Of a DNA stretch of 64,000 nt, positions 9,056 through 30,626 are shown one piece after another. How positions within the stretch are numbered: the stretch's first letter is position 1; each line of letters opens with the position of its first letter. The position numbers and the translations under genes were made by a program. Origin of the DNA: Alphaproteobacteria bacterium. GTDB lineage: Bacteria; Pseudomonadota; Alphaproteobacteria; SHVP01. A model generated the notes under the pieces. It was not told the origin of the DNA. It searched no databases and saw only the letters and a program-made list of their open reading frames with translations. The DNA is taken from assembly GCA_038116985.1 (NCBI GenBank), contig JAYOEZ010000007.1, positions 624 through 64,623 on the forward strand, written 5' to 3'.

Positions 9056-9082
9056 TTTCTCGCGCCCGGCGCGGTGATCTTG

Positions 9083-9108
9083 AAGGCCCCGCTTTGGCGG
9101 GGCCTTTT
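9083..9108 (+). terminator. intrinsic terminator after the secreted-protein gene
   Basis: AAGGCCCCGC-TTTG-GCGGGGCCTT hairpin followed by TTTTC, 28 nt after the stop at 9055. Confidence 0.75.
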
Positions 9109-9115
9109 CATTTGG

Positions 9116-9433: not shown

Positions 9434-9461
9434 GGCCGTAACCCGTGCCGGGAACGATACG

Positions 9462-10358: not shown

Positions 10359-10484
10359 GATGCTGAATTCCTGTCTGTTCGTCTGGATGGGCCGGGGCCG
10401 GTGGGTCAACGGCACGTGGCGGTCCGCGAGGCGGTACCATAGTGCAAGGGTCGGAGCCCCGAAAGGCCGGGAAAGGCGCGGAAC

Positions 10485-11643: not shown

Positions 11644-11771
11644 TCAGCGCAATTGCCGACTGGCGCCGATCCTCGGAACGGCCCGGTAGCCTTTGGTTTC
11701 TGCGCCGCTCGGCGCCATTGGCCTGCGGTCAGCCCCGGCGGTAGACTATGTCTCCCGACAAGGAGGCATAC

Positions 11772-12884
11772 ATGACCCGTCAGGCATCCCACGGCGCGTT
11801 CCCGGATATCAATCACGACGAGATGGCGCGGCAGGACTTCGCACTGCGACTTCGCGAATACGTCGCCGGCGACATTGTCGGCGGGAACGACGACGTCTAC
11901 CGCCTCGACGTTGAACCTGCTTTTGAACGCACACACGGCCGCAAGCCCGAATCGCGCAAGGAAGTCCGCCAGGCGATGGAGCGCCACCCCTATCACCAGG
12001 CGTGGGGATCGCTGAACCGCGCGACCCAGGAAATCATCTGGGATTCGGTGCAGGACTCGCTCGACCGTCAAGACGACGCGCTCAACAAGCGCATCGCCAA
12101 CACGGGCAAAGCCAAGGGCTCTCTTCGGCTGGACCCGTCGGTCAAGGCGCCCAAGTACCTGACCGCAGTGGACATCCATTGCATGCCGGGCAACTACCAC
12201 ACGGAATATACGGACGATGACGCCTACCAGGGCGCGCTCCTCGACCGCGGCGCATTCATCTACGCGCGCGGTGGCCGCGGCGCCTACCACGATTCGTTTG
12301 GTCGCGACCTGCTCGCCTACCTCGACAAGGCCCGCCCCGGATTCCAACCCAAACGCATCCTCGACATGGGTGCCGGGCCTGGCCAGGTCACATGTGTCTT
12401 TGCCGAACGCTACCCAGACGCCGAGATTCACGCGATCGACGTCGGCGCGCCGCTCCTGCGCTACGGCCACAAACGCGCCGAATCGCTTGGCTACGCGATT
12501 CACTTCTCGCAACAGGATGTCGAGCATACGGATTTTGCGGACGAGAGTTTCGACCTCATCATCTCGTGCATCATGATGCACGAAACCTCTTCGAAGGCGT
12601 TGCGCAACTACCTGAAGGAAACCCATCGCCTGCTCGCGCCGGGTGGCATGGCGCTGCACATGGATTTCCCGCACAACGAAGACAAGACGCCTTATCTGCA
12701 GGCAATGGTCGATTGGAGCACGCACTACAATGCCGAACCCTACATCGGCACGCTCGGCGACACGGACTGGGCGGAGGTCGCGGTGCAACAGGGTTTCTCC
12801 CACAACGCGGCCGCCGTCGTGCCGATGTCCAGCGTCGTGCAGCGCAACCACATGTACGTGCTCGACGCGCGCAAGCCGGAGTGA
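11772..12884 (+). CDS. class I SAM-dependent methyltransferase with N-terminal domain (paralog 2 of 3)
   Basis: 370 aa from ATG 11772 (AGGAGG RBS). ILDMGAGPG, AEIHAIDVGAP, FADESFDLIISCIMMHE and LLAPGGMALH. N-terminal domain contains HCMPGNYHTEYTDDDAYQGALLD. Confidence 0.85.
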   Translation: MTRQASHGAFPDINHDEMARQDFALRLREYVAGDIVGGNDDVYRLDVEPAFERTHGRKPESRKEVRQAMERHPYHQAWGSLNRATQEIIWDSVQDSLDRQDDALNKRIANTGKAKGSLRLDPSVKAPKYLTAVDIHCMPGNYHTEYTDDDAYQGALLDRGAFIYARGGRGAYHDSFGRDLLAYLDKARPGFQPKRILDMGAGPGQVTCVFAERYPDAEIHAIDVGAPLLRYGHKRAESLGYAIHFSQQDVEHTDFADESFDLIISCIMMHETSSKALRNYLKETHRLLAPGGMALHMDFPHNEDKTPYLQAMVDWSTHYNAEPYIGTLGDTDWAEVAVQQGFSHNAAAVVPMSSVVQRNHMYVLDARKPE

Positions 12885-16179: not shown

Positions 16180-17016
16180 ATGGTCGATTTCAAACGCCCC
16201 GCTCTCGTCGAAGAAATCCGTGTACCGCGGCTGCGCATCAGCTACCTCGACTGGCCGGGCGATGCGCCGCCGATCGTGCTGCTCCACCCCAACCGCACCA
16301 ATGCGCGGGTCTGGGACTTCGTAGTCGACGCCAGCACGCTTCCAAACCGCTTCATTGCGCCGGACGCCCGCGGCCACGGCTTCAGCGACTACCCGGAACG
16401 CGACTACGTGCTCCAGGAATATGTCTGGGACCTGATGGAGTTTCTGGACGAATTGCAGGTTCCGCAAGCCGTTCTCGTCGGCGCCGCCACGGGCGGCAAC
16501 ATCGCGCTGCTCACCGCGTCGCAGCACCCCGGCCGTATCGCGGCACTGATCGTCGCCGATCCCGGTCTGTCGCTCGACAAGAAGATCAGCGCCGACGTGA
16601 AGGACGAGATCGTCAGCAAGGCGCGGTTCCCCGATTTCGAGACCGCCAAGGCCGAGATGCCGTTCTCCAGCCTTTGGTCCCAGGACATGAAGGACCACTT
16701 TGCGGAACACAGCTTCCGCCGCCTCGATTCAGGTGAAGTCGAGTGGCGCTATTACCCGCAAGGCGCCCAGTACACCGAAGGCGTTCTCGAGAACGACATG
16801 TGGGACGACATCAAGGTGACCTGCCCGACGCTGATGATGCGCGGCGACCGCTCAGAGGTCTTCCCGGCCCACAACATGGAACGCCTGCAGTCGCTGATCC
16901 CGGAGTCGGAAGCGCAGGACGTGTCGGGCTGCGATCACCGCATCAGCCAGGACCAGCCTGAACGCATGGCCGAATTGGTCGACGACTTCCTTCGCCGTCG
17001 CCTCTTTTCGGCCTAG
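16180..17016 (+). CDS. alpha/beta-fold protein with atypical elbow G-A-A-T-G-G
   Basis: 278 aa. IVLLHPN, PDARGHGFSD, LVGAATGGNIALL where GxSxGG is expected, MRGDRSEVF (acid) and GCDHRISQDQP (His). Its stop shares CTAG with the convergent gene. Confidence 0.8.
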   Translation: MVDFKRPALVEEIRVPRLRISYLDWPGDAPPIVLLHPNRTNARVWDFVVDASTLPNRFIAPDARGHGFSDYPERDYVLQEYVWDLMEFLDELQVPQAVLVGAATGGNIALLTASQHPGRIAALIVADPGLSLDKKISADVKDEIVSKARFPDFETAKAEMPFSSLWSQDMKDHFAEHSFRRLDSGEVEWRYYPQGAQYTEGVLENDMWDDIKVTCPTLMMRGDRSEVFPAHNMERLQSLIPESEAQDVSGCDHRISQDQPERMAELVDDFLRRRLFSA

Positions 17017-18683
17017 GCGTCGAGGAAGCGCCGCAGCGGCACTGCTCGGTCTACCGCCGCGATCGGAACGACGCTGGTGTCCGAGCCTTCCACGAGCTTC
17101 GCGCTAGCTTCCCGAAATGCCGCAAACGGATCGTTCTCAGCGGCGCAGACGAGCGTCGGTCCCTGGATCGAGGACAGGCGACTGGCGAGATCGTCCCCCA
17201 GCAATGTGCGCCACGTATCCGCATAGTTCGCGCGTTGCTTGAGTACGCCGATCAGGCGCGTGGTCAGGCGAACGGGCTCGACATCGGGTTCGATGTCTCT
17301 CACCGCCGAAAGCGATTCGTCGTACCAGGGCCAGTACAGCTGTTCGTTACGCAGCGCGTGCCACAGTTTCAGGAGATGCCCGCCCTCGGGTTCGAGCGCA
17401 ATGGGGGCGGCGTAGCGGGGCAGAAGCGTCTCGCGCATGTCCGCGTCCGGCGTCACCGCACCGTCGAGGATCAGCTTGCCAACCGTGTCGGGTGATCGTT
17501 GTGCAAGGGCCGCGGCGACTGTCCCGCCGCCGCCGTGCCCGTAAATGTCGGCACGGTCGATGCCGAGCGCCGCCAAGACCTCCCGAACGGCGTCCGCCTG
17601 CGCGTCGATGGACAGCACGCGGTCGAGATCTGAATCGCCGTTGCCCGGCGGATCGATCGCGATAACGCGTCGGCGCCGCGCCATAGCGCGCATGAGCGCC
17701 TCGTAGCTCTCGCTCGATCCGGGGATGTGCGGCAATATGACAAGCGGACGGCCATCGGGATCGCCGGTTTCGCGTACCAGAATCTCTCCATCCTGCCATG
17801 CGACGAAGCGGCGGGAGATCCGGCCCTTCGCGGTTGTCGTTTCGGGCGGCGCTGATGCCGATTCATCCGGAAGATGGTCGGCAATGATCTCGGCATAACG
17901 CCGCGCCGCTGCGCCGTCGTCGGCAGGCAACGTTTCCGTCCACGCGCAATCGGGCAGGGCGCCAAGCTGTCGCAGCGATTCGTTCAGCGAATCCTCAGCC
18001 CGACCTGCAAAGCACGTCGGAACCTGGAGATCGCGCACGACCTCGATTTCGGGATAGCGGAACACCGCGGCATAGCCCTTGGCATAACCGGCCCCGGCCA
18101 TGAAGCCGGCCAGCGTCATCCGGTGGAGCATGTCGAGGTCGCGCGCCCCGGCCGCGGCCCGTGTTGACTTGCGCCGGTCGTACCACGGCCAATAGATGCT
18201 CATTTCCCGGTAGCGCAGCCAGAAGTCGACGAGGTGCAGGCCGGTCCACACCGGTTGCCAGGGCGGTAGGTACTCGCGCTCCATTTCGGCGCGCTCGTGG
18301 TCCGGCCAGGCCGGATAGCCGTCGAACAGGGCGACCGACACGCGCTCGGGGTAGCGGCGCGCGAACTCGATCGCGATGGTTGCGCCGGTATGCGAGCCGA
18401 ACAGCGCGCAGCGCCCGATTCCCAGCGCGTCGAGCGTGTCGGCCAACGCCTCGGCGTAGTCGCCGATCTCCGGCGCGGCGACGGGCAGAGGATCGGACAG
18501 GCCATAGCCCGGCGTGTCCAGAGCGATGGCCGCGTAGTTTTGCCCGAAGGTCTCGACGAAGGTCGTTAGCGCCCAGGAGGAACTCGGACTGGCGTGCAGC
18601 AGCACGACAGGTGGGCCGTCGCCGGCGCGCCGGTAGTGGACCTGGCGGTCGCCGACCGAAACGAAGTGCCGCGTGATCGTCAC
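17013..18683 (-). CDS. tandem two-domain alpha/beta-fold protein A (elbows G-S-H-T-G and G-H-G-G-G)
   Basis: 556 aa from GTG 18683, which forms a GTGA overlap with the stop of the upstream paralog. Domain 1 has VVLLHASPSS, DTPGYGLSD and LFGSHTGATIAIEFA. Domain 2 has DPPGNGDSD and IYGHGGGGTVAAALA. Confidence 0.8.
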   Translation of the reverse strand: MTITRHFVSVGDRQVHYRRAGDGPPVVLLHASPSSSWALTTFVETFGQNYAAIALDTPGYGLSDPLPVAAPEIGDYAEALADTLDALGIGRCALFGSHTGATIAIEFARRYPERVSVALFDGYPAWPDHERAEMEREYLPPWQPVWTGLHLVDFWLRYREMSIYWPWYDRRKSTRAAAGARDLDMLHRMTLAGFMAGAGYAKGYAAVFRYPEIEVVRDLQVPTCFAGRAEDSLNESLRQLGALPDCAWTETLPADDGAAARRYAEIIADHLPDESASAPPETTTAKGRISRRFVAWQDGEILVRETGDPDGRPLVILPHIPGSSESYEALMRAMARRRRVIAIDPPGNGDSDLDRVLSIDAQADAVREVLAALGIDRADIYGHGGGGTVAAALAQRSPDTVGKLILDGAVTPDADMRETLLPRYAAPIALEPEGGHLLKLWHALRNEQLYWPWYDESLSAVRDIEPDVEPVRLTTRLIGVLKQRANYADTWRTLLGDDLASRLSSIQGPTLVCAAENDPFAAFREASAKLVEGSDTSVVPIAAVDRAVPLRRFLDA

Positions 18684-20377
18684 GATACGCCCTTGATGAA
18701 GGCGTCGACGCCCTTGGCGATGGCCTCGTTCTTGAAGTCGAGAATCTGATACTCCCCGTCCGGCACCATGGCGGCCGCTTCCGGTGCGAACCTGTGGAAC
18801 GGATCGTCCTCGATCGATGCGACCAGTGTGCGGACCGGTACCATCTGCAAGTTGTCGCGCACCGGATAGTCGAAGACCGCGCGCCACACTTTGTCGTAGT
18901 TGCGGTAGTGCTTGAGAATGCCGGTGATCTTGCGCTCGAGAAGCTTGGGGTCGATCTCCGGCTCGATCTTGCGTACCGCCTGGATCGACTCGTTGTACCA
19001 GGGCCAGAACAGCTGTTCGTTGCGCAGCGCGAACCACAGGCTGATCAGGTGCGTGCCGTCCCACTTCGGTTCGATCGGCGGGGCGTAGTTCGGGGCCAGC
19101 GCGTGGCGCAGTTCGTCGGGCATGGCGAGCGGCGCAAACAGGATCAGGTTGCGCACCCGGTCGCGACGGTCGCGCACGTACTCGACCGCAACCGATGCGC
19201 CGCCCCAATGACCGGCGAGATCGATCTTGTCGAAGCCCAGCGCGTCCAGCGCCTCGCCGAGAACTGCCGCATAGTTGGGAATCGTGTGGGGAAGGGACCA
19301 GTCGTCGGAATCGCCGTTACCGGGCATGTCCAGTGCGACGACGCGATGCCCCAGTTTGCCGAGCTCCATCATGAAACCCGCATCCAGACCGACGTCGCCG
19401 GGAATCTGCGGCAGCAGCACGAGCGGAATGCCATCTTCGGGCCCGGCGCTGGCCACCGCCATCTGTCCATAGCTGAGATCGACGTAGCTGCGGTTCAGCT
19501 TGCCCGCAATCGCGGCCGGCGGCGGCGGCAGCGGCGCGTCCTGCGGCGCCGGATGCTCTTCGAGAATCTCGCGGTAGCGCAGCGCCGCCTCGCCGATGTC
19601 GCGCGGCAGCTCCTCCGTCCAGGAGCCATCGGCCTTGCGGTCCTCGATGAGGGGAAAGCCTTTGATCAGCGAATCGCCCGTGCGCGCGCCGAAACACGTC
19701 GGCACCTTGAGCTTCGCGATCGGTTCGAGGCCGGCATAGCGGAAGACCGCGCCGTAGCCCACGTTGTAGGCCTCGCCGGTGATGAAGCGCGGCAGCACCA
19801 TGTCCTGCATCGGACCCGGCGGCGGCGGTGCCGCGGTCGTCGTGCGGTTCTCCTTGTGCCACCGGAAGGTCGGCGAAAAGATGAACTGTTCGCGGAACTT
19901 GTGCCACTGGTACATCAGGTGCGAACCGTCCCATTTGGGCGTGTAGGGCGGCAGGTAGTACTTCGTCATGTCCTCGCGGTAGGCGTCCTCGTAGGCCGGA
20001 TAGCCGTCGATAACGAATACCGTGATGCGCTCCGGATAGCGCACCGCGAATTCCATCGAGATCGACGCACCGGTATGCGACCCCCACAGCCCGCACTTAT
20101 CGATGCCGAGCGCGTCGAGCGTGTCCTTCAGCGCTTCGGCGAAGTCGGGGATCTCCGGCTTCTCGATGTCGAGCAAATCGGAATGACCGTAGCCCGGCGT
20201 GTCGAGCGCGATCGCCGTGAACTTCTCGGCGAAGACGCGGGTGAACGGGTCGATCCCCTTCGCCCAACTGGGCGAAGGATGCAGCATCACGACGGGAGGG
20301 CCCGATCCGGCTCGGCGATAGTGGACGCGCCTTGAACCGACCGTGACGAAGTGACTGCGAATGGTGGTGTTGCCCAT
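18680..20377 (-). CDS. tandem two-domain alpha/beta-fold protein B (elbows G-S-H-T-G and G-H-W-G-G)
   Basis: 565 aa. Domain 1 has VVMLHPSPS, DTPGYGHSD and LWGSHTGASISMEFA. Domain 2 has DMPGNGDSD and LAGHWGGASVAVEYV. Paralog of 17013..18683. Confidence 0.85.
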   Translation of the reverse strand: MGNTTIRSHFVTVGSRRVHYRRAGSGPPVVMLHPSPSWAKGIDPFTRVFAEKFTAIALDTPGYGHSDLLDIEKPEIPDFAEALKDTLDALGIDKCGLWGSHTGASISMEFAVRYPERITVFVIDGYPAYEDAYREDMTKYYLPPYTPKWDGSHLMYQWHKFREQFIFSPTFRWHKENRTTTAAPPPPGPMQDMVLPRFITGEAYNVGYGAVFRYAGLEPIAKLKVPTCFGARTGDSLIKGFPLIEDRKADGSWTEELPRDIGEAALRYREILEEHPAPQDAPLPPPPAAIAGKLNRSYVDLSYGQMAVASAGPEDGIPLVLLPQIPGDVGLDAGFMMELGKLGHRVVALDMPGNGDSDDWSLPHTIPNYAAVLGEALDALGFDKIDLAGHWGGASVAVEYVRDRRDRVRNLILFAPLAMPDELRHALAPNYAPPIEPKWDGTHLISLWFALRNEQLFWPWYNESIQAVRKIEPEIDPKLLERKITGILKHYRNYDKVWRAVFDYPVRDNLQMVPVRTLVASIEDDPFHRFAPEAAAMVPDGEYQILDFKNEAIAKGVDAFIKGVS

Positions 20378-20476
20378 GGTGACCTCCCCTGATTTGCCGC
20401 ATCATAGCTGCCACAATGGCGCGGCGCTTCATCGCCGAGGCCTGCGCCCGCGGATTGCGCGAACATGGAGGACGCA

Positions 20477-21457
20477 ATGAACCGGACCGGACCGCTCGAA
20501 CGAGCTTCGATCTTTGTTCGCGATACGGAGCGTTCGCTCGCCTTCTACCGCGACATCCTCCGCCTCGATGTGGTCGAGACCCGCGATCTCGAAGGCCCGG
20601 TCATTGCCAGCATGATCGGGCTCGACGACTGCAAGATCAGGGTGACCTACCTCACGGCCGAGAACAGTGAACGGGCGCGGCTGGGGCTGTTCGAAGTCTA
20701 CGATCCGCGCCCGCCCGAACTGCCTCGTCCGCCGACCGCGTCGATCAATCTGGGCCAGCCCGCGCTCGTGTTCGACAGCCCGTTCATTGCCGACATCCAT
20801 GCCGATCTAAAGGCGGCTGGCGACTACACCTTTCTGTGTGAGCCTTTCGAGATGCCCGACAACCAGGGCGGTATCTATACCGAGATGATCGTGTTCGACC
20901 CTGATGGCGTCGCAGTTGACGTGATGCGCTACACGTTGGGCGACGGAGCCGAGGTCAGCGATGTTGTCAACCGCACTCGCGGCGAAATGCCCGGCGGCAC
21001 GAACCGAACCTCTCCGATCATGCGCGGCTCGATCATGACGCGCGATACCGCCAAGGCGCTGGCTATTTATTGTGACGTTCTAGGTCTCACCGTCGTTCAA
21101 GAACGTACGCTCAGCGGCCCGGCGATTGGAGACATCTTGGGCCTCGGCGAATGCGAAGTCAGGACTACCTACCTGACAGCGGCAGACAGTGAGGTCGGTC
21201 TGATCGGCCTGATCGAGATCACCAAGGGCCGCCCGACTGAACTGCCGCGCCCGGAGGCGCGCATTCACTGCGGCCAGCCCGCCTTCGTCTTCGCGACCCA
21301 GGAGAACCACGCGATCTCGGCCGAGTTGAAGAAGGCCGGGGCGACGTTCATCTGCGAGCCGGTAGACTTCACCAGCCCGCGCGGGACCTATATCGAGACG
21401 ATCTTCCTCGATGCCGACGGCATCCCCGTCAGCATCATTCAGTTCACGCCGGCCTGA
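20477..21457 (+). CDS. tandem-domain VOC (glyoxalase/bleomycin-resistance/dioxygenase) family protein
   Basis: 326 aa from ATG 20477 (GGAGGA RBS; alternative ATG at 20465). Two homologous halves (SIFVRDTERSLAFYRDILRL... and SIMTRDTAKALAIYCDVLGL...). Confidence 0.8.
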   Translation: MNRTGPLERASIFVRDTERSLAFYRDILRLDVVETRDLEGPVIASMIGLDDCKIRVTYLTAENSERARLGLFEVYDPRPPELPRPPTASINLGQPALVFDSPFIADIHADLKAAGDYTFLCEPFEMPDNQGGIYTEMIVFDPDGVAVDVMRYTLGDGAEVSDVVNRTRGEMPGGTNRTSPIMRGSIMTRDTAKALAIYCDVLGLTVVQERTLSGPAIGDILGLGECEVRTTYLTAADSEVGLIGLIEITKGRPTELPRPEARIHCGQPAFVFATQENHAISAELKKAGATFICEPVDFTSPRGTYIETIFLDADGIPVSIIQFTPA

Positions 21458-21460
21458 CGG

Positions 21461-21808
21461 TTAGGGCTCCTTGGGCGGCGCCGGTTCGTCGGGATCGGCG
21501 GCGAGGCCTTCGACCCGTTCGCGCAGGACGAAGAAGATCCGGTCGATAAAGGCCTGGCTCTCGGCGTCCATCTTGGCGCGCTGCGCAGGTGTGACCTTCA
21601 AGCCGTCCAGCTCCTTCTGGGTGAACAGCTTCTTCTTGGTCGCGAGCGATTCGTACGCGGCAAGGCGTTCCTTCACCACCCACAGCTCCTGGGCCAGGGC
21701 CATGGTGATCGATACCAGTTCGTCGACGCCCTCGGCCGAAAAGAACTGGGACTGCTTGCCGCGAACGCTGTAGCGCAACGGCTTCTTGCCGTCGCTCGCG
21801 CTCGTCAT
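21461..21808 (-). CDS. 115-aa helical protein of unknown function, coupled to methyltransferase paralog 3
   Basis: ATG 21808 overlaps the methyltransferase stop (ATGA). Protein-like composition (…LVSITMALAQELWVVKERLAAYESL…). The longer ORF to 21982 overlaps the methyltransferase gene. Confidence 0.6.
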   Translation of the reverse strand: MTSASDGKKPLRYSVRGKQSQFFSAEGVDELVSITMALAQELWVVKERLAAYESLATKKKLFTQKELDGLKVTPAQRAKMDAESQAFIDRIFFVLRERVEGLAADPDEPAPPKEP

Positions 21809-22998
21809 TTCCAGGCTCCGAAGCAGTACCAGTGGATTCCGGCCGCGAAGCGTCCGGTTTGGTCGTCGGCCTTGCCGGTCTGCTGCTTGACCGAATCCTT
21901 GACCGCCTTCTCGCCATACTGGCCTAGGCTCGGGATGATGTACTGGACGAACTTGCTCTTCGCGAAGCCGGCCTCGGCGCACACCGCGCGCGGGTCGGCG
22001 TCTCGGAACAGCTTATAGAAGGGCTCCTTGTTGTAGTAGGAGTCCCAGTCCAGGTAGAACTGGTCATAAGGCCCCAGCATCTTGTTGGGCGGCAGTTCCA
22101 TGTGAAGCATCAGCCCACCCGGTTTCAGCAGGCGACGCGCCTCCTTGAACACCTTCTTGATGCCCTTCTTGGGCACTTCATGCAGGAACATCGACGAGAA
22201 GATCAGGTCGAAGCTTTCGTCCTCGAACGTGGTCTCCTCGGCGTTCTGCTGGTGGAAGTGAACGCTCACACCTTCTGACTGGGCGCGCGCGTTGCCGTAG
22301 CGCACGACGGGCCCGCCGACGTCGATCGCGTGTACTTCCGCCTTCGGGTAGGTCTTGGCCCAGGGCACCGTGTTGTGGCCGATGGTGCAGCCCATGTCGA
22401 GAATGCGCGCCGGCTTGAACTTCGGATACCTGTTCTTGATGAACAACGAGATCGAACTGCCGATGTCGTCCAGGTTGTCGCCGAAGAAGCCCATGCTGAA
22501 CACGGAGATGCCGTTGTCGTAGACCGCACCCTGGGTCACGTCGTCGGGGCCGTATTCGGTGTCGTAGTTGCCCGGCATCAGATGCACGTCGATCGCTGCG
22601 ACGCTGCGCGGTACCTCGAAATTCGGATCGGTCTGGACGCTGCCCTTGGCCTTCTTCGACCTGCTGAGCGTCTTGGCCTTCTTGTTCAGGGCGTCCTGAT
22701 TGCGCTCTACCGTCGGCAGGATCGATCGGAACACCATTTCCTGCACGTTGCAGCGCATCGACGAATAGAACTTGAACGTGGTGTCGTTCTTGAGCGCCCG
22801 GTGCACCTCGACGCCGTCCTTGGGTGCGCGGCGGTTCTTGCGCTTGAAGTCGGGCTCGACGGCGTTCTCGTAAACCGTTCGCATGCCGTTCGCCATGTCG
22901 TGCAGCACGTAGAGCCGCATGCTCGACATGAACGCCTGGCGCGCCGCCTCCTCGGGCGTCGGGTCGATCTTCAGGTCATGGTGGACGTATTTGGTCAT
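21805..22998 (-). CDS. class I SAM-dependent methyltransferase with N-terminal domain (paralog 3 of 3)
   Basis: 397 aa from ATG 22998 (GAGAGG RBS; MTKYVHH...). ILDMGCTIG, AEVHAIDVGGP, FEDESFDLIFSSMFLHE and LLKPGGLMLH. N-terminal domain contains HLMPGNYDTEYGPDDVTQGAVYD. Confidence 0.85.
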   Translation of the reverse strand: MTKYVHHDLKIDPTPEEAARQAFMSSMRLYVLHDMANGMRTVYENAVEPDFKRKNRRAPKDGVEVHRALKNDTTFKFYSSMRCNVQEMVFRSILPTVERNQDALNKKAKTLSRSKKAKGSVQTDPNFEVPRSVAAIDVHLMPGNYDTEYGPDDVTQGAVYDNGISVFSMGFFGDNLDDIGSSISLFIKNRYPKFKPARILDMGCTIGHNTVPWAKTYPKAEVHAIDVGGPVVRYGNARAQSEGVSVHFHQQNAEETTFEDESFDLIFSSMFLHEVPKKGIKKVFKEARRLLKPGGLMLHMELPPNKMLGPYDQFYLDWDSYYNKEPFYKLFRDADPRAVCAEAGFAKSKFVQYIIPSLGQYGEKAVKDSVKQQTGKADDQTGRFAAGIHWYCFGAWK

Positions 22999-23080
22999 GA
23001 TCCGGCCTCTCATCCGCGAAACTGCAACGCGTTCGCAGTATGGTGGTTCGGGCCGCGCTTGGAAAGCGCCGGTCCGGACG

Positions 23081-24178
23081 CTATGGCTTGATGCCCAGCC
23101 GTTCGTTGACGCGCGGCATCACGTTCCTGGCAAGTAGTTCCATCGAGCGGAACCAGCCGTCGCGCGCGCCGGGATCGGCATAGTCGAAACCGATCTGCAG
23201 CAGCACGCCGAACCCGCCGGTCTGTTCGTGCTGGTCGACGATCTGGTCGACCACCTTGTCGGGGTTACCGACGAACCACGTGCCGTGGTCGACGAGGTAG
23301 GCGGCGTCGACCTTCGCGTCGGCAGGTGCGCCGTCGCGCCGGAACATGTCGGCAATGCCGAGGCGTTCCGCGATGATGCTGAAATAGCCGTTCCAGAACC
23401 GCCCGGCGAAACCGTCTACGACGGCCTTGCGTGCCTCGGCGTCGGTGTCGGCGACGAAAATCTCTCTGATCTGGCGCCAGTTCTGTCGTGATGGCGTGCG
23501 TCCCGAACGTGCCGCGCCTTCTTCGATTGACGGCCAGTGCACCGAGACGTGCTGCGGCGCCACGTTGAAGCTCATGGGGATGTAGCCCTTTTCGCCCGCG
23601 ATCATCAGCGAGCCCGACTTCGGCATGAACCCGGCAAACGCGATGCGCGGTTCCGCCGGCGCGAAGGGCTTGAGATGCCAGTAGTAGCGGTCGTTGTAGT
23701 CGGGCCGCCGCGTCGTCCAGAACTCGCCGTCGAAGTCGCCCGGGCCTTCTGGCGACCACGCCTGCAGAATGATCTCGATGGCCTCGCGCGAGCGCAGGCC
23801 GTTTTCGCCCTTGGCGAAGTCGAGGCCGTAGAGTTGCCCGTCTGTCACCGTGCCGCCGGCGCCGAACCCGAACATCAATCGCCCGCGGCACATGTGGTCG
23901 AGCTGCAGGAGCTCGGCCGCGAGCCGCAGCGGGTGCTGCTGGTACAGCACCTCCACTCCGGTGCCGAGTCGGATGTCCCGGGTGCGGCCGGCCGCACCGG
24001 CAATGATCTGCTGCGGCGAGGGCAGGGGTTCCCATGGCGTGGTGATGTGCTGTCCCACCCAGGCCTCGGCGTAGCCGAGCGCGTCGGCGCGCGCGATCAT
24101 CTCGATGTTCCAGTCGATGACGTCGGCGAGCGGCCGCTGCGGGTCGCTCGCCGGCATGAGAAACAGGCCCAGTTCCAT
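23081..24178 (-). CDS. LLM-class (luciferase-like) flavin-dependent oxidoreductase
   Basis: 365 aa. MELGLFLMP..., ADALGYAEAWVGQH, IRLGTGV and LMFGFGAGG are typical of the luciferase-like monooxygenase family. Confidence 0.8.
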   Translation of the reverse strand: MELGLFLMPASDPQRPLADVIDWNIEMIARADALGYAEAWVGQHITTPWEPLPSPQQIIAGAAGRTRDIRLGTGVEVLYQQHPLRLAAELLQLDHMCRGRLMFGFGAGGTVTDGQLYGLDFAKGENGLRSREAIEIILQAWSPEGPGDFDGEFWTTRRPDYNDRYYWHLKPFAPAEPRIAFAGFMPKSGSLMIAGEKGYIPMSFNVAPQHVSVHWPSIEEGAARSGRTPSRQNWRQIREIFVADTDAEARKAVVDGFAGRFWNGYFSIIAERLGIADMFRRDGAPADAKVDAAYLVDHGTWFVGNPDKVVDQIVDQHEQTGGFGVLLQIGFDYADPGARDGWFRSMELLARNVMPRVNERLGIKP

Positions 24179-24228
24179 GCGCCGGTTCTAGTGGATGCGG
24201 CGCGCCGATGGAACCCGCCGGGCGGTCT

Positions 24229-25143
24229 TCAGCGCGGCAGGTAGCCCGGTGCGACGTTGCGCGACCGGCGTCGCTCGGGGTCGCCCTGCAGCGAGGAGCC
24301 GGATTCGCCCGATGCCATCGCCTGCAGCCGGGCGATCCGGTTGGCCGTCGACGGATGGGTCGAGAACAGGTTGTCGCGCTTGTGCGCGTGCAACGGGTTG
24401 ATGATGAAAAGGTGGGCCGTCGCCGGATTGTTTTCCGCCGCGACGTTGTCGATGCGCGCAGCGCCGGCGGAAATCTTGTCCAGCGCCGAGGCCAGCCACA
24501 GCGGGTTGCCCGCAATCTCGGCGCCGATCCGGTCGGCCTCGTATTCGCGCGAGCGGCTGATCGCCATCTGCACCAGCATCGCCGCCAGTGGGGCCATGAT
24601 CATCACGGCGATCGTGCCGACCAGGCCGAGCGGGCTGTCGCGCCGCCCGCCGAAGAACAGCGCGAAGTTCGCCAGCATGCTCAGCGCGCCGGCGAGCGTC
24701 GCCGTGATCGTCATGATCAGCGTGTCTCGGTTCTTGATGTGGGCCAGTTCGTGCCCGACGACACCCGCCAGTTCGGCCTCGCTCAACTGGCGCATCAGGC
24801 CGGTCGTCACCGCGACAGCCGCATGCGACGGGTTGCGGCCGGTTGCAAACGCGTTGGGCTGCGCGTTCTCCATGACGTAGACCTTGGGCATCGGTAGGTC
24901 GCCGCGGCTCGCAAGCCGTTCGACCATCGCGACCAATTGAGGATGGCTATCGCGCGACACTTCCTTGGCGCCATGCAGCCGCAGCATCAAACCATCGGAA
25001 TTCCAATAGGCGAACAGGTTCATGCCCGCCGCGACGATCAGCGCGATGATGAGCCCGCCCTCGCCGCCGAGCAGGAAACCTGCGGCGAGGAAGAGGGCGG
25101 TAAGGCCCGCGAGGAGAATGGCGGTCTTGGCGTAGCCGGTCAT
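24229..25143 (-). CDS. htpX: zinc metalloprotease HtpX (M48 family)
   Basis: 304 aa. N-terminal TM helices, [12 protein letters not shown] zinc motif, and C-terminal [14 protein letters not shown]. Confidence 0.9.
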
Positions 25144-25260
25144 CTGCGTTTCCCATAGGTCCCATGTTTCAGGGCATGTTTTCAGATGGTGGGATCAGGT
25201 CGTATTTCAAGCTTCGGTGTGCCCTTGCCTCCACGGGCGGCGTCCGGCTTACTGGCGCCC

Positions 25261-25467
25261 ATGAGCACCGAACGGCCGCGCTTCAATATCTGGCTCAATC
25301 TCTTCATCCTCGCAGGGATCGCTGCCGTCGCGGTCGTGCAGTCGCGCGGCTGGTTGCCCGAGGACAACGTCGTCGTCACCGGTATCGCCTACTTCGCTGG
25401 CGGCGCGGTCGGCGCACTGCTCTACGCCGGTCTGAGCGACCTTCGCCACCGCCTGGTCGGCAAATAG
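25261..25467 (+). CDS. possible small membrane protein (68 aa, 2 TM)
   Basis: ATG 25261. MSTERPRFNIWLNLFILAGIAAVAVV... and ...GIAYFAGGAVGALLYAG. No family recognised. Confidence 0.4.
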   Translation: MSTERPRFNIWLNLFILAGIAAVAVVQSRGWLPEDNVVVTGIAYFAGGAVGALLYAGLSDLRHRLVGK

Positions 25468-27180
25468 CTATTCGTCGACGAAATCTCGGATCAACGCGGC
25501 GATCTCTTCGGTGCGCGTGTCCATCATGCCGTGGCCGAATCCCGGCATGTCATGCACCCGGCCCTTCTGGATCAGGTCGGCTGCCCGTTTCGACTGTTCA
25601 TAGAGGTCGTCTTCGGGGTTGAGCACCAGCACCGGCGAGGTGACCTGCTTGAGGCGCTTGGCCATGGGATAGGCGAACGCCGCCCGGTGGCCCCACGAAT
25701 AGGCCGGACCCCAGCGCAGCGTCTCGTTGAAGGCATCGGCATAGTTCTCGATCGTCTGTCCGGGGCCGAGCCATTTCCAGAACGCCTGCCAGCGCATCAC
25801 GTTGTGCATGCCGTTCTCGTCGAACTCGATGGGCGTATAGGCGTCGCGAAAGCGAACCAGGTCTTCTTCGGAGAATAGTGGCGCGGAGTACATGATGATG
25901 TGGGCGATCATCTTCGGCATCCGGTGCCACAACTCGGTCGCGATCTCGCTGCCGGTGTGGAAGCCGAACAGATCGACGCTGTCGAAGTCCTGTTTCATGA
26001 TGAACTCTGCCATCACGTCGGCGAAATCGCCGATCTCGACAGGTTCCGGCGGCGGCTCGCTCTCGCCGAAGCCTGGCGTGTCCGGCGCCAGCACGATCCG
26101 GTCCCTGCCGATCACCGGCATCAGGTTGATGTAGGCGCGTCCGGAACGTGGGCTGGCATGCAGGCAGATCAGCGGCCGTTGCGTACGGTCGGCCTCGGGC
26201 GGCCGCACCGCGCGGTAGTGGAGTTGTCCCCAGCGGCTGTCGGTGAACGCGCGTCGCACGAAACTCGCACCTGTGGAAGGCGAAGCGATCGCCTTCTTCT
26301 TGGCGTCGTCCGGGTCGACGACGTCGGTGTCGGGCTCGCCGTCGTCCAGGAAATCGCGGACGATCTGCGCCACGTCTTCCGTATGGGTTACGAACATGCC
26401 ATGGCCGAACGTTTCCTTGGGCAGGTCCAGCACGCGGCCGTTGCGCAACAACGGCGCCGCGCGGCGCGTCTGTTCGACGAGGTCGTCTTCGGGGTTCAGC
26501 ACCAGAACCGGCTGCGCGGTCTCGGCAAGCCGCTCGCCGAACGGATAGTTGAACGCGGCGCGATGGCCCCAGGCGTAGTGCGATCCGTCGCCGCGCAGCA
26601 CTTCGGCGATTGTGAACTGATTGAGATTCGCATCGACCCCCGGCCCGCGCCACTTCCAGTGGCCGGCCCAATGCCGTTTCAGGTGGCTCCCGTCCTCGGC
26701 CAGCGCGATGCCCTTGTAGTGATTGCGGAACTCGGTGAGTTCCTCGTCAGTAAAAATGGGCGCGGAGACGATGACGACGCGCCGGACCTGGTCCGGGCGT
26801 TGGCGCGCGATCTCGATGGCGATTTCGGAACCGGTGTGGATGCCCAGGACGTCGACCGTGCCGATGCCGAGACCGTCGAGCACTTCGCCGGCGCAGGTGG
26901 CGAAGTCCTCTATTTCCTTAGGTTCCGGTGGCGTCGTGCTTTCGCCGAACCCGATCGTGTCGGGCGCGACCGCCACCCGATCATGGCCCATCTCCTGGAT
27001 GAACTGGGCGAACATGCGCCCCGAGCTCGGACTCAGGTGAAAGCACATGAGCGGAACACGCGTCGGGTCCTTGGGCCGCGCGATCCTGTAGTGGACCTGT
27101 CCGACCTGGCAGTCAGCGAAGCCCCGCCGCACACCCTCGGGTGTGCGCCACGGTTTCATGGCGTCGTCGCGGTTTGGCAT
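25468..27180 (-). CDS. tandem two-domain alpha/beta-fold protein C (both elbows G-x-H-T-G)
   Basis: 570 aa. Domain 1 has CFHLSPSSG, APDTIGFGES, VLGIHTGSEIAIEIA, NPEDDL and FGHGM. Domain 2 has CLHASPRSG, APDTPGFGES, LFGFHTGSEIATELW, NPEDDL and FGHGM. The start lies 1 nt after the stop of the upstream paralog. Confidence 0.85.
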   Translation of the reverse strand: MPNRDDAMKPWRTPEGVRRGFADCQVGQVHYRIARPKDPTRVPLMCFHLSPSSGRMFAQFIQEMGHDRVAVAPDTIGFGESTTPPEPKEIEDFATCAGEVLDGLGIGTVDVLGIHTGSEIAIEIARQRPDQVRRVVIVSAPIFTDEELTEFRNHYKGIALAEDGSHLKRHWAGHWKWRGPGVDANLNQFTIAEVLRGDGSHYAWGHRAAFNYPFGERLAETAQPVLVLNPEDDLVEQTRRAAPLLRNGRVLDLPKETFGHGMFVTHTEDVAQIVRDFLDDGEPDTDVVDPDDAKKKAIASPSTGASFVRRAFTDSRWGQLHYRAVRPPEADRTQRPLICLHASPRSGRAYINLMPVIGRDRIVLAPDTPGFGESEPPPEPVEIGDFADVMAEFIMKQDFDSVDLFGFHTGSEIATELWHRMPKMIAHIIMYSAPLFSEEDLVRFRDAYTPIEFDENGMHNVMRWQAFWKWLGPGQTIENYADAFNETLRWGPAYSWGHRAAFAYPMAKRLKQVTSPVLVLNPEDDLYEQSKRAADLIQKGRVHDMPGFGHGMMDTRTEEIAALIRDFVDE

Positions 27181-27181
27181 C

Positions 27182-28903
27182 TCAGACCTCTGGGGCGTCC
27201 AGGAAGTTGCGCAGGATCGCGCCGAACTCAGCCGTCATCGTGTCGATGAAGCCGTGACCACGATCCTTGATCTCGTGCATGCGCCCGTTCTGCAGCAGAG
27301 GCAGGCCGCGAGGCGTCTGCACGACCAGGTCGTCGTTCGGATTGATGACCAGAATCGGCTGCGTGACCTTGGGCAGCGCGGCTGCCAGGTCGTAGTTGAA
27401 TGCGGCCCGGTGGCCCCAGTGCGTCGCCGGTCCGCCGCGTAGGCCTTCGGCGAAGTTCCTCGCCAGGACCCGGCGCGGCACCATCGCGCCGTAGAAGGGC
27501 AACATGAACGTCCACTTCTCGACGAGGTGGCTGCCGTCTTCGTTGATCGCCGCAGCCTTGGCCGTCGCACGAAGCGATCGGCGCAGGTCGCCCAGTTCCT
27601 CGTCGGTGAATAGCGGGCAGGAGATCTGCACGATCCGGCGCACGAGGTCGGGCCGTTGCAGCGCCAATTCGACACAGGTGTCCGAGCCCGTGTGGTAGCC
27701 CATCACGTCGATCTGCTTCAGCCCCAGCGTGTCGACGACATGGGCGACGGTCCGTGCGTAGTCGGCGATTTCCGGTGGTTCGGCGGGTGCGTCAGATTCG
27801 CCGAAACCCGGCGTGTCGGGTGCGACGGCCAACCGGTCGTGTCCCATCTCTTCGAGAATCGCCTCGTAGATGCGGCCCGAGTTCGGGCTCATGTGCAGGC
27901 ATACCAGTGGCGTTCTGTCGGTCGATTGCCCTGCGGTGCGATAATGGATCTGGCCGTAGGGTCCGTCGATGAAGGCGCGGCGGACGGGACGCGGGACAGC
28001 CTTCGGCGGGCTCGGCGTCTCCTTCGCCTGCGTCTTGCCGATATCGTCAGCCGGCCCGTCGAGGAAGTCGCGCACCACGGCCGCGACGTCCCCGGTGTGG
28101 ACATCGAGCATCCCATGCGAATAGTCCGGCAATTCGTGCAGCCGGCCGTTCTGCAAATAATCCGTCGCCCGCAACGTCGGTTCGCGCAGATCGTCGTTCG
28201 GGCACAGGATCAGCACCGGCTGCTTCACCTTGGGCAGGTTGTCGGCGTGCTGTAGTCGGAATGCCGCCTGATGTCCCCACCAAGCGGTTTCGCCGCCGCG
28301 CAGCGCCTCGGCGACCTCACGATGCACGAACACCAGCGGCGCGTCCTTGTCCTTCCAGCGAAGGTGCCCGTCCCACTTCTTCTGTAGGTGACTGCCGTCC
28401 TCGGTCGTCTCGTCGGCGGCCGGCGTGCCCATCGTCTTGAACTGGATTTCGAGTTCTTCCTTGGTGTAGATCGGCGCTGACACCAGCACGATGCGCCGAA
28501 CCTGATCGGGACGCTGTTGCGCAATCTCGACGCAGGTGCGCGAGCCCGTGTGGTAGCCCATCACGTCGACCTGATCGAAGCCGAGTTCGTCGATCAGGTC
28601 GCCCATCGTTGCCGCATAGTCGGCGATCTCCGGCGCGCTGGACGGCGGGTCGGATTCGCCGAACCCGGGCGTGTCCGGCGCCACCGCAATCCGATCCTTG
28701 CCCATCTCCGCCAGCCACAGCCCGTAGACGCGGCCCGAGTTCGGGCTGAGGTGGAAACAGATCAGCGGCGTCTTGCCCGAATTGGTCTCCGGTTCGGCGA
28801 TCCGGTAGTGCAACTGGCCGAAGCGGCCGTCGGTGTAGGCGCGGCGGACGCCGGGCGGCGTACGCCAAAGGCGCATCTGTTCTTCCAGTTCCTGATCCGG
28901 CAT
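27182..28903 (-). CDS. tandem two-domain alpha/beta-fold protein D (both elbows G-Y-H-T-G)
   Basis: 573 aa from ATG 28903 (GGAGAC RBS; MPDQELEEQMRLWRTPPG parallels the N-terminus of protein C). VMGYHTGSRTCVEIA and VMGYHTGSDTCVELA. CPNDDL/NPNDDL and YSHGM/RGHGF. Confidence 0.85.
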   Translation of the reverse strand: MPDQELEEQMRLWRTPPGVRRAYTDGRFGQLHYRIAEPETNSGKTPLICFHLSPNSGRVYGLWLAEMGKDRIAVAPDTPGFGESDPPSSAPEIADYAATMGDLIDELGFDQVDVMGYHTGSRTCVEIAQQRPDQVRRIVLVSAPIYTKEELEIQFKTMGTPAADETTEDGSHLQKKWDGHLRWKDKDAPLVFVHREVAEALRGGETAWWGHQAAFRLQHADNLPKVKQPVLILCPNDDLREPTLRATDYLQNGRLHELPDYSHGMLDVHTGDVAAVVRDFLDGPADDIGKTQAKETPSPPKAVPRPVRRAFIDGPYGQIHYRTAGQSTDRTPLVCLHMSPNSGRIYEAILEEMGHDRLAVAPDTPGFGESDAPAEPPEIADYARTVAHVVDTLGLKQIDVMGYHTGSDTCVELALQRPDLVRRIVQISCPLFTDEELGDLRRSLRATAKAAAINEDGSHLVEKWTFMLPFYGAMVPRRVLARNFAEGLRGGPATHWGHRAAFNYDLAAALPKVTQPILVINPNDDLVVQTPRGLPLLQNGRMHEIKDRGHGFIDTMTAEFGAILRNFLDAPEV

Positions 28904-29008
28904 GCCTTGTCTCCCCAACCCCTATTTGGCCCGACCGGCGGCGTCGGGCGCAAGCGCGAGCGTCCGCTGGCCTACGAGAGGCGCTGAAACGTTGGGATTT
29001 CGGGGAAT

Positions 29009-29839
29009 CTAGTTGTCTTCGACGCTCTGGAAGGTAATGCCCTCGAAGGCATCTTCCATGTCCGCCGATCCGGCGATCTCTTCGGCCGGGAACATCAAGC
29101 CTGCCGCTTCGAAGCCACCGTCGACGTTCAGCACGTGGCCGGTCGTGTAGGACGCGTCCTCGCTGGCCAGGAACCGGACCGCCGCGCCGACCGCTTCCGG
29201 CGTACCGTAGCGTTTCATCGGGATGCGGCCCAGGTAGCCCTCGACCGTGCCAGGGCTGTGGTTGGTGATCGCGGTTTCGACCGGTCCCGGCGCCACGGCG
29301 TTGACGCGGATGTTCTTCTCCGCGAACTCCACCGCCATGATCTTGGTCAGTTGGATGATGCCGGCCTTGGACACGCCGTAGGCGCTGCGACCCGTGGAGC
29401 CGCGCTGGCCGGAGATCGATGCAATGTTGACGATCGCCCCGCCGCCGACCTGCTCCATCATCGGAACGGCCGCTTTCGAACAGAGGAACGTGCCGGTCAA
29501 ATTCGTGCGCAGCACCTGGTCCCACTCTTCGAGCGATTGATCCATGATCAGGCGGTTCGGCGCCACACCGGCATTGTTCACCAGCACGTCGAGCCGGCCG
29601 AACTTCTCCTGTGTCTTGGCGAATGCCTCAGCCACGGATTCGGGATTGCTGATATCGGCGAACATCGCCATAGCATCGGCGCCGGTGCCGCGGATCTCAT
29701 CCGCGGATTCTTCGACGATGTCTGCGAGAAGATCGACGACGACGAGGGAGGCGCCTTCACGCGCCAGCGCTAGTGCCGCTGCGCGCCCGAGGCCCCGCGC
29801 GCCGCCTGTGACCAGCGCCGTCTTGCCTGACAGCTTCAT
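29009..29839 (-). CDS. SDR family oxidoreductase (FabG-like) with short acidic C-terminal tail
   Basis: 276 aa from ATG 29839. TALVTGGARGLG, NNAG, and YGVSKAG (YxxxK). Confidence 0.85.
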   Translation of the reverse strand: MKLSGKTALVTGGARGLGRAAALALAREGASLVVVDLLADIVEESADEIRGTGADAMAMFADISNPESVAEAFAKTQEKFGRLDVLVNNAGVAPNRLIMDQSLEEWDQVLRTNLTGTFLCSKAAVPMMEQVGGGAIVNIASISGQRGSTGRSAYGVSKAGIIQLTKIMAVEFAEKNIRVNAVAPGPVETAITNHSPGTVEGYLGRIPMKRYGTPEAVGAAVRFLASEDASYTTGHVLNVDGGFEAAGLMFPAEEIAGSADMEDAFEGITFQSVEDN

Positions 29840-29957
29840 ACCGGACCTCAGCATTTCCTACGCAACTACAGGTTCTACCAAAATTACTTAGTCGTGGAGG
29901 ATTACCGGATTACACTCCGATTACTAGGAAAAAACGCTTTAGGGGCGGAAATCGGCC

Positions 29958-30626
29958 ATGGATTGGACTTCTTTCTTCATCTTCGTCCACGTTCTTCTGA
30001 TGGCCTTTTGGCTTGGCGCGGACATGGGCACCTACTACTCGGCCCAGTTGATCCTCAACCGCGACTACACGCCGCCCCAGCGCGCGGTGCTCGCGCGCGT
30101 GCTCCAGGGGGTCGACATGTTTCCGCGCGTGGCGATGACGCTCATCGTGCCGACGGGCCTGACGATCGCCTACAACAAGGGCTGGGCCCCGGTCGGCATG
30201 GCGGGGCTCCTGATCGTTTGGGTGGTCTCGCTGGCCTGGACCTGGCTGGTATGGAACGTCCATCGTCCCACCGCACCGGAGTGGGGCAAGAAGCTCCAGC
30301 GCGTCGAGGATATCTGGAACTACGTTCTGCTCGCGATCGTGATCGTGACCCTGATCGTATCGCTGTCATCCGGCGACCTGTTTCCGGAGAACTGGCTGCG
30401 CCTCAAGATCGCTCTCTACGGGCTGACCGTCGTGATCCTGATCGTCGTGAACTTCATGTTCAAACCATTCGGGCCTGCGTTCGGGCGCCTGATGAGCGAA
30501 GGTTCTACCCCTGAGATCGAGGACACGATCGCGGCGCTCATCAATCGCGGCAAGCCGTGGATCTGGGCGATCTGGGGCATTGTCGTGATCAACACCGCGC
30601 TCGCGATCTTCAAGCCCGTCTTCTAG
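29958..30626 (+). CDS. integral membrane protein of unknown function (~6 TM)
   Basis: 222 aa, strongly hydrophobic periodicity. Its stop shares CTAG with the convergent nitrilase-family gene. Confidence 0.6.
   Translation: MDWTSFFIFVHVLLMAFWLGADMGTYYSAQLILNRDYTPPQRAVLARVLQGVDMFPRVAMTLIVPTGLTIAYNKGWAPVGMAGLLIVWVVSLAWTWLVWNVHRPTAPEWGKKLQRVEDIWNYVLLAIVIVTLIVSLSSGDLFPENWLRLKIALYGLTVVILIVVNFMFKPFGPAFGRLMSEGSTPEIEDTIAALINRGKPWIWAIWGIVVINTALAIFKPVF

Follow-up and report, generated by a model that had tools for sequence, protein, structure and literature searches.

Can a protein with the fold of alpha/beta-hydrolases (ABH) still be an enzyme when none of the residues that normally serve as its nucleophile stands at the nucleophile elbow? 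The reaction diversity of this fold is normally explained by one machine, a Ser, Cys or Asp acting together with a His and an acid, and the question is raised by a 64,000-nucleotide stretch of DNA from Alphaproteobacteria bacterium (assembly GCA_038116985.1, contig JAYOEZ010000007.1, positions 624 to 64,623), referred to here as the window. Five of its genes, designated A to E, encode ABH proteins with nine domains in total, A to D being tandem proteins whose domains are numbered in order (A1, A2 and so on). The reading preferred here, held at a probability of roughly 0.45, is that A1, B1, C1, C2, D1 and D2, together with the product of a further window gene at 53850-54710, belong to a large unnamed ABH clade with an invariant His at the elbow, whose members act as general-base/acid enzymes without a covalent intermediate. 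What is new is a type of elbow residue for which no description was found, present on a very well-known fold and in a large variant without a name.

Identity of the elbow residue

The single-domain protein E (16180-17016, forward strand) belongs to a clade distinct from that of the four tandem proteins A (17013-18683), B (18680-20377), C (25468-27180) and D (27182-28918), all encoded on the reverse strand. Translation of D probably starts at an ATG at 28903, preceded by a GGGGAG Shine-Dalgarno sequence, yielding the 573-residue form held at NCBI. All five proteins match Pfam Abhydrolase_1 and Abhydrolase_6 above the gathering score, A to D in two stretches each. The elbow is occupied by His in six of the nine domains and by Gly, Trp and Ala in one each, with Ser, Asp or Cys in none. 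The corresponding codons lie at 16486-16488 (E, Ala103), 18390-18392 (A, His98), 17532-17534 (A, Gly384), 20075-20077 (B, His101), 19205-19207 (B, Trp391), 26836-26838 (C, His115), 25957-25959 (C, His408), 28550-28552 (D, His123) and 27692-27694 (D, His409). The Pfam matches, the alignments and the mapped codons bear out the starting point of a first-pass annotation of this DNA, which had described five ABH-fold genes with nine domains and no Ser at the elbow; the elbow peptides that it quoted are present, with His, Ala, Gly or Trp at the position in question.

The same annotation had allowed for a Thr at the elbow through a shift of one residue, a placement rejected because the phmmer alignments, the profile alignment and the secondary structure of two models all give His. 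In phmmer comparisons with PDB sequences, G-Y-H-T-G of D aligned on G-W-S-L-G of AidH, and G-S-H-T-G of B aligned on G-N-S-M-G of BphD and on the H-D-W-G of a dehalogenase. A profile built from seven window domains, used for searches of the PDB and of representative proteins, aligned G-l-H-T-G full-length with G-v-S-M-G of Est1 and also with G-h-D-W-G of haloalkane dehalogenases. Its DD motif falls on the acid of Est1 and its GHG motif on the catalytic His. In C and D, the post-beta7 Asp and the loop His align with the catalytic Asp and His of both Est1 and AidH.

The AlphaFold models of D (pLDDT 96.0, pTM 0.94) and B (pLDDT 95.4, pTM 0.93) leave a single residue, the elbow residue, between strand beta5 and helix C in all four modelled domains. 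In D, strand 117-122 leads through His123 into helix 124-135, and strand 403-408 through His409 into helix 410-421; in B, strand 95-100 leads through His101 into helix 102-113, and strand 385-390 through Trp391 into helix 392-403. Foldseek matched both models with probability 1.0 to hundreds of ABH structures, with target-normalised TM-scores (TMt) reaching about 0.8. Neither the sequence and profile alignments nor the models place a Ser, Asp or Cys at any elbow.

Conservation, size and distribution of the family

Whether H-T-G is conserved, a point on which the first-pass proposal hinged, is answered by the homologs of D, which number 617 and are mostly tandem proteins of 560 amino acids. G-x-H-T-G occurs in both domains of 108 of the 120 D homologs listed, down to 43% identity, and across tandem and single-domain proteins it is kept down to about 37-43% identity. 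Judged from these alignments, such conservation is far beyond chance, marking the motif as a family signature and excluding decay. The 363 homologs of B carry G-[SR]-H-T-G-A in domain 1 and mostly G-H-N-G-G-A in domain 2, with Gln, Gly, His, Trp and Met as variants.

Searched against 1.84 billion representative proteins, the seven-domain profile matched 1,938 clusters (50% identity) at E<=1e-30 and 20,309 at E<=1e-10, and most of the top 150 matches are tandem proteins. A scan of GTDB genomes gave 80 loci, mostly from metagenome-assembled genomes (MAGs) of Alphaproteobacteria (Rhodospirillales-like, from lakes and the sea) and Gammaproteobacteria (Steroidobacteraceae and Nevskiaceae), with Sphingomonas and Nocardioides also represented. 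Several loci often come from one genome, at least five in one MAG, and the abundance of paralogs in uncultured Alphaproteobacteria suggests that they take part in breaking down environmental organic matter.

In a plasmid collection the family was found in cultured Novosphingobium, Variovorax, Rhodococcus, Streptomyces and others, including eight places on plasmid pSA1 of Novosphingobium resinovorum. The motifs G-S-H-T-G, G-H-H-T-G, G-T-H-T-G and G-F-H-T-G were confirmed in Variovorax, Rhodococcus and Novosphingobium genes. Cultured members include WP_075836275.1 (Rhodococcus sp. YL-1) and WP_162595584.1 (Variovorax sp. PBL-E5). Members from cultured organisms lie in catabolic operons, and those of Variovorax and Rhodococcus are named only 'alpha/beta (fold) hydrolase' by PGAP; other labels currently attached to such genes are 'pimeloyl-ACP methyl ester carboxylesterase' and 'tropinesterase'.

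Residues that co-vary with the elbow histidine

All retrieved proteins and loci together gave 964 domains, which were aligned to the profile; the elbow residue is His in 713, Asn in 87, Gly in 66, Gln in 21, Ser in six, Asp in three and Cys in none. At 60% identity, the non-redundant sets comprise 231 domains with the elbow His and 176 without it. Thr follows at Nu+1 in 89% of the former against 27% of the latter, a Tyr or His stands in the cap (D position 216, about 93 residues past the elbow) in 82% against 26%, an Asp follows beta7 (D position 242) in 87% against 33%, and the His of H-x-S-P is present in 95% against 71%. The classical loop His (position 268) is found in 28% of the domains with the elbow His, being deleted in 47%, and in 2% of those without it. 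Because Thr at Nu+1, the cap Tyr/His and the Asp after beta7 travel with the elbow His, the comparison argues for the elbow His itself as the putative functional core, the classical loop His not being the common one.

The H-x-S-P-x-S motif replaces the usual HGxP, as already described at first pass, with His in 94%, Pro in 89% and Ser61 in 87% of the non-redundant set, and Arg or Lys is frequent at position 63. Cap His177 (87% with the elbow His, 94% without) and cap Trp182 (95% and 94%) behave differently from the residues above. The cap motif D-G-x-H-L-x-x-x-W was considered as a catalytic hallmark and rejected; being kept equally in degenerate domains, it is probably structural.

Two configurations, which co-evolve in these alignments, are distinguished. 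In type I, the loop His is present together with a cap His and an Asp-Asp pair (Asp243); in type II, the loop His is absent and the cap residue is Tyr. Both domains of C (elbow His115 and His408) and of D (His123 and His409) are type I, each domain of D having the elbow His, Thr at +1, the cap His, Asp-Asp after beta7 and the loop His-Gly. Type II comprises A1 (His98), B1 (His101, Thr, cap Tyr and Asp235) and the single-domain, type II-like product of the 53850-54710 gene (forward strand; His98 within G-L-H-T-G-N). Neither domain of A or of B has a loop His.

These distributions bear on the mechanism that the first-pass annotation had envisaged, a His/Asp dyad without Ser, in which cofactor-independent oxygenases or lyases work through the classical loop His and Asp and the elbow residue is incidental. 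Such a dyad fits C and D, where the post-beta7 Asp and the loop His-Gly are both retained and line up with the catalytic residues of Est1 and AidH, and the neighbourhoods of the family are rich in oxidoreductases. It does not extend to A and B, which lack the loop His along with about 70% of the non-redundant His-elbow domains, the elbow His being the defining invariant; moreover, nothing specifically similar to HOD/QDO, MenH or hydroxynitrile lyases turned up in PDB and family searches. As an account of the family it is very improbable.

The histidines of type I also raise the case of a metal-dependent ABH, with a three-His or two-His-one-carboxylate site for Fe, Zn or Ni serving an oxygenase, hydratase or hydrolase and with ligands drawn from the elbow His, the cap His, the loop His or cap Tyr and the Asp after beta7. 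Four or five conserved His plus Asp surround the predicted pocket of type I domains, loss or change of the loop His goes along with that of the cap His, and VOC-fold and cupin metalloenzymes occur among the neighbours, all of which would be in keeping with a metal site. Type II, however, keeps only the elbow His, cap His177 and the Asp, and cap His177 looks structural, being equally conserved in degenerate domains without the elbow His. To our knowledge, a catalytic metal has no precedent in ABH proteins, and we consider this reading improbable.

Degenerate domains

A2 and B2 have lost the elbow His, the Thr, the cap Tyr/His and the Asp together. A2 carries Gly384 at the elbow, and B2 carries Trp391, lacking the HxSP His and the loop His and retaining cap His443 and Trp448; the fold of B is predicted with high confidence. 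Only in these two domains have catalytic residues been lost with the fold kept, and by sequence comparison they are pseudo-domains. A and B each combine one complete and one degenerate domain, in agreement with the mixture of enzyme and pseudo-enzyme domains proposed earlier for this pair.

Pseudoenzymes of the ABH fold that lack a nucleophile are well known, Asn replacing the elbow Ser in ABHD5/CGI-58 (PMC9694394), and the whole family could by analogy be non-catalytic, consisting of ligand receptors, scaffolds or co-activators comparable to ABHD5/CGI-58, NDRG or strigolactone/gibberellin-receptor-like proteins, with the His pocket binding a ligand or partner. Like ABHD5 and NDRG, A2 and B2 have a non-nucleophilic elbow (Gly and Trp here, Asn in most homologs), lack the loop His and are retained as partners of a complete domain; their family consensus G-H-N-G-G mimics the ABHD5 elbow, the genes are obligately paired, and weak Ndr-family Pfam matches occur. 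Those matches lie at or below the cutoff, however, there is no specific sequence relationship to ABHD5/NDRG, and the other six domains, unlike those proteins, keep the co-varying polar site. Polar residues that co-vary at catalytic positions in two alternative configurations are typical of active sites. The paralogs have expanded within catabolic clusters, as the counts for pSA1 (eight places) and for a single MAG (at least five loci) illustrate, and in the loci examined the family genes lie within rows of enzyme and transporter genes. A non-catalytic role for the family is unlikely, and we infer that its members are enzymes and not dead relics.

A second clade without a nucleophile

E and the gene at 52132-52995 (forward strand; G-G-A-T-G-G-N, with Ala112 at the elbow) form a second nucleophile-less clade with Ala at the elbow, the loop His kept and no conserved acid. 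In alignments with esterase 5EGN and with 3P2M, Ala103 of E falls on the Ser of each and His253 on the catalytic His. G-A-A-T-G-G-N, H-P-N-R-T-N after beta3 and His253-Arg-x-x-Gln-Asp are invariant in 120 of 120 E homologs, and the supposed acid, Asp223, is mostly replaced by Ala, Ser or Thr. The earlier statement that C, D and E keep the later acid and His motifs stands for C and D and for the invariant loop His of E; it fails for the Asp of the E motif MRGDRSEVF, which is not conserved among the relatives of E. Grouping the five genes as one set likewise suits A to D, which belong to the His-elbow family, and not E, which falls in the separate G-A-A-T-G-G-N clade. In addition to the five nucleophile-less genes confirmed here, two more (53850-54710 and 52132-52995) lie beyond the span first noted. 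E-like genes follow an A/B-type pair in three other loci (L004, L006 and L010).

Comparison with known families

No curated family was found for these proteins: every NCBIfam match lies far below its cutoff, and Pfam returns only generic ABH models. Likewise, PDB sequence and profile searches and Foldseek searches with both models revealed no solved close relative, only generic ABH structures at 15-24% identity. The suggestion that G-x-H-T-G is an undescribed signature held up in the family libraries and literature searched, the latter describing neither a GXHXG motif nor an ABH elbow occupied by His. In the passages of an ABH classification paper that were consulted, Asp-substituted and triad-less clusters are described and no His-elbow cluster appears (PMC11878206).

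Closest in structure are Cif and Cif-like epoxide hydrolases, fluoroacetate dehalogenase, haloalkane dehalogenases, Pseudomonas esterases, non-haem haloperoxidases and enol-lactonase. With Ser hydrolases such as Est1 (8V16/6EB3), BphD/HsaD, AidH and 3-oxoadipate enol-lactonase the family shares the fold, a full-length profile alignment, the positions of the elbow, the acid after beta7 and the His after beta8, the D-x-P-G-x-G-x-S loop and a helical cap. It differs from them in the invariant elbow His in place of Ser, in H-x-S-P-x-S in place of HGxP, and in a loop His that is dispensable in half of the family.

Members of the Asp-nucleophile class (the epoxide hydrolases Cif, Cfl1/2 and CorEH; haloalkane dehalogenases; the fluoroacetate dehalogenase RPA1163) are the best neighbours of A, B and D in sequence and structure, and the A2/B2 consensus G-H-N-G-G resembles the epoxide-hydrolase G-H-D-W-G with Asp changed to Asn. 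Unlike in that class, the Asp nucleophile is absent (3 Asp among the 964 domains), the elbow His aligning with the Asp of H-D-W-G, and type II lacks the His/acid relay for alkyl-enzyme hydrolysis. Epoxide hydrolases carry a substrate-polarising Tyr/Tyr or His/Tyr pair in the cap, which the spacing of the cap Tyr/His in the family recalls, a likeness of spacing between caps that align poorly in sequence. Fluoroacetate dehalogenase is a dimer with half-of-sites behaviour, an arrangement that the paired domains here recall.

HOD/QDO, MenH, hydroxynitrile lyases and methylketone synthase are non-hydrolytic ABH enzymes that use the oxyanion hole and a base; the elbow residue is still Ser in most of them and Ala in methylketone synthase, and all depend on the loop His. 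The family, with His at the elbow and an optional loop His, differs from them and showed no specific similarity to them in the searches; it is not of the HOD/QDO oxygenase type, which retains Ser and requires a loop-His/Asp dyad. A canonical Ser, Cys or Asp nucleophile is lacking in the window domains and very rare in the family at large.

Proposed mechanism

Proton abstraction and lyase chemistry without an acyl-enzyme have precedent on the ABH fold (PMC11878206). In the preferred reading, the elbow imidazole would lie at the helix-C N-terminus, next to the pair of backbone NH groups that form the oxyanion hole. With a side chain about 3 Å longer than that of Ser, its ring would come near the position of the classical His ring and within reach of the beta7 Asp; the loop His could then be deleted because the dyad is, as proposed, relocated to the elbow. 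The elbow His would be polarised by the Asp after beta7, directly in type II and via or beside the loop His in type I, and would serve as general base/acid, activating water or abstracting a proton in one step. The oxyanion hole would stabilise an oxyanion or enolate, and the cap Tyr/His would act on the substrate oxygen or leaving group as donor of a proton or hydrogen bond, the reaction proceeding without a covalent acyl- or alkyl-enzyme. The coupled or fused domains would assemble into hetero-oligomers in which degenerate domains are structural or regulatory partners. Esters, lactones, epoxides or enolisable carboxylates or thioesters would be the likely substrates, supplied by the SDR, Zn-ADH, FAD, LLM and ACAD-like oxidoreductases encoded nearby in catabolic islands. 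Sequence patterns across the family make it probable that its chemistry is one not yet described for the ABH fold.

That His is a fourth catalytic type of elbow residue after Ser, Cys and Asp, whether through a dyad relocated with the beta7 Asp or as a covalent nucleophile, stands at about even odds. In the covalent variant, the helix-C dipole together with the oxyanion hole would stabilise a phospho-, acyl- or alkyl-His, and the loop His/Asp or cap residues would resolve the intermediate. The elbow His sits exactly at the nucleophile position and is followed by a small-residue helix start, H-T-G-[SA], that resembles the phosphohistidine loop of succinyl-CoA synthetase, G-H-A-G-A; the frequent Arg/Lys at position 63 could bind an anion, and an APH-type kinase gene lies between family genes on pSA1. 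Half of the family nevertheless lacks the loop His that normally resolves a covalent intermediate, the 84 loci compared below show no consistent link to kinase or phospho-metabolite genes, and we know of no covalent His catalysis in the ABH fold. A covalent His intermediate is unlikely.

Several points weigh against general-base/acid catalysis by the elbow His. No biochemical data were found for any family member, and the contacts of the elbow His with the Asp, the loop His and the cap Tyr/His are deduced from ABH topology. Gene neighbourhoods differ from locus to locus, and part of what they share reflects synteny among related MAGs, making the substrate class a guess. The His-rich pocket of type I (elbow, loop and cap His plus Asp) could fit a metal site equally well, a His at the helix N-terminus beside the oxyanion hole could carry a covalent phosphoryl or acyl group, and the conserved Thr at Nu+1 and Ser61 may be alternative nucleophiles.

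Gene organisation and neighbourhoods

Within the window, the TGA stop codon of B overlaps the GTG start codon of A (GTGA), C begins 1 nucleotide past the stop codon of D, and an SDR oxidoreductase gene (29009-29854, reverse strand) lies directly upstream of D and C, all as recorded at first pass. E and A are convergent, and their stop codons overlap by 4 nucleotides at 17013-17016, leaving no space for a terminator between them.

Neighbouring genes were clustered over 84 loci, with genes called by a dynamic-programming caller. Among adjacent family genes on the same strand, about 25 of 33 pairs overlap by 4 nucleotides or lie no more than 7 nucleotides apart, and this tight coupling is seen alike in pairs of single-domain genes of about 270 codons and pairs of tandem genes of about 560. 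Almost without exception, genes of the family are either fused or coupled at the translational level. Among the domain architectures of the pool, His/His is counted 205 times, His/other 170, single His 100 and other/His 29. The series from coupled genes through fusions to paired fusions suggests, at the level of gene layout, obligate hetero-oligomers.

The order in the window, E-like, A, B, [VOC-fold gene], small open reading frame (ORF), methyltransferase, LLM, HtpX, small ORF, C, D and SDR, is retained in loci L004 and L010 and partly in L006 and L016, and SDR followed by tandem ABH genes is retained in L004, L006 and L010. The most recurrent neighbour, present in 20 of the 84 loci and in many different arrangements, is a methyltransferase of about 390 amino acids; the pSA1 copy has 37% identity over 342 amino acids (E=3e-83). 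In the window this gene (21805-23013, reverse strand) encodes a class I S-adenosylmethionine-dependent methyltransferase with an N-terminal extension of about 190 residues. Other recurrent neighbours are SDR (18 loci), FAD_binding_2 (15), HtpX (14), Zn-ADH (13), a 229-residue protein without a Pfam match (8) and ACAD-like proteins (7), along with luciferase-like (LLM) flavin monooxygenases, CoA-transferase III, enoyl-CoA hydratase, and MFS, TTT and ABC transport proteins. The LLM gene of the window (23081-24178, reverse strand) lies between the A/B and C/D pairs, and LLM genes also flank family genes on pSA1. The adjacency of HtpX probably reflects synteny among related genomes, a functional link being unlikely.

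A single conserved operon that would name the substrate was sought and rejected, the clustering having given recurring partners in many arrangements and much synteny among MAGs. The neighbourhoods suggest catabolic islands, with no single pathway emerging.

The protein of about 229 amino acids without a Pfam match (cluster c11), encoded outside the window, adjoins single-domain His-elbow genes in L059, L065, L069, L073, L078 and others, often followed by the methyltransferase in the order ABH, c11, methyltransferase. The pSA1 locus L084 (1101123-1119932), on a plasmid record nearly without annotation, has two single-domain His-elbow genes (6711-7610 and about 9000-9819) flanking an MFS_2 transporter; it also holds genes for an APH-type kinase, a second MFS transporter, a secreted Ser-type ABH, a methyltransferase, two LLM monooxygenases, an M24 peptidase-fold protein and a ureidoglycolate-lyase-fold protein.

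Other features of the window

The single-domain His-elbow gene at 53850-54710 closes an operon-like row on one strand, formed by a ChaC-like gene (49373-50086), a DAO oxidoreductase (50163-51311), an enoyl-CoA hydratase (51330-52127), the E-like gene (52132-52995) and an Amdase-like (arylmalonate-decarboxylase-like) gene (53044-53850), directly 3' of which it lies.

Three paralogous class I methyltransferases of about 355-402 amino acids, which share the N-terminal extension of about 190 residues, are encoded at 1060-2127 (reverse), 11748-12884 (forward) and 21805-23013 (reverse), and no specific family name was found for them. A gene for a 115-residue protein without a Pfam match (21461-21808, reverse) overlaps by 4 nucleotides the stop of the upstream methyltransferase gene, and this pair of methyltransferase and small ORF is retained in five loci (cluster c24). 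A 330-residue protein with two glyoxalase/VOC-fold halves (20465-21457, forward) is encoded between the A/B pair and the methyltransferase; no NCBIfam family matched it, and it is a singleton in the locus clustering. An HtpX-type membrane protease (24229-25143, reverse) and a small membrane protein (25186-25467, forward) stand between the two ABH pairs.

A 570-residue protein with two tandem carbon-nitrogen hydrolase (nitrilase-fold) domains (30623-32335, reverse), conserved in L004, L006 and L010, represents a second tandem-duplicated enzyme fold near the ABH genes. The window additionally contains a PEP-mutase/isocitrate-lyase-family gene (9462-10415, reverse), a family III CoA-transferase (2349-3542, reverse) and an FAD-linked oxidase (6810-8387, reverse); genes of the latter two families also lie close to His-elbow family genes in a few other loci (c76 and c103).

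Implications

With about 2,000 clusters at 50% identity, the family represents either a new catalytic solution on the ABH scaffold or a very large class of ligand-binding pseudoenzymes, and either outcome changes the annotation of genes now called 'alpha/beta hydrolase'. The series of coupled genes, fused tandems and paired tandems offers a clean case of pseudo-domains being recruited as partners. The presence of members in cultivable Novosphingobium, Variovorax and Rhodococcus makes the question directly testable. If His is indeed a fourth catalytic type of elbow residue, thousands of enzymes would be invisible to serine-hydrolase probes and to motif-based annotation, and obligate hetero-oligomers of active and pseudo-domains would operate in catabolic islands carried by uncultured Proteobacteria that abound in fresh water and the sea.

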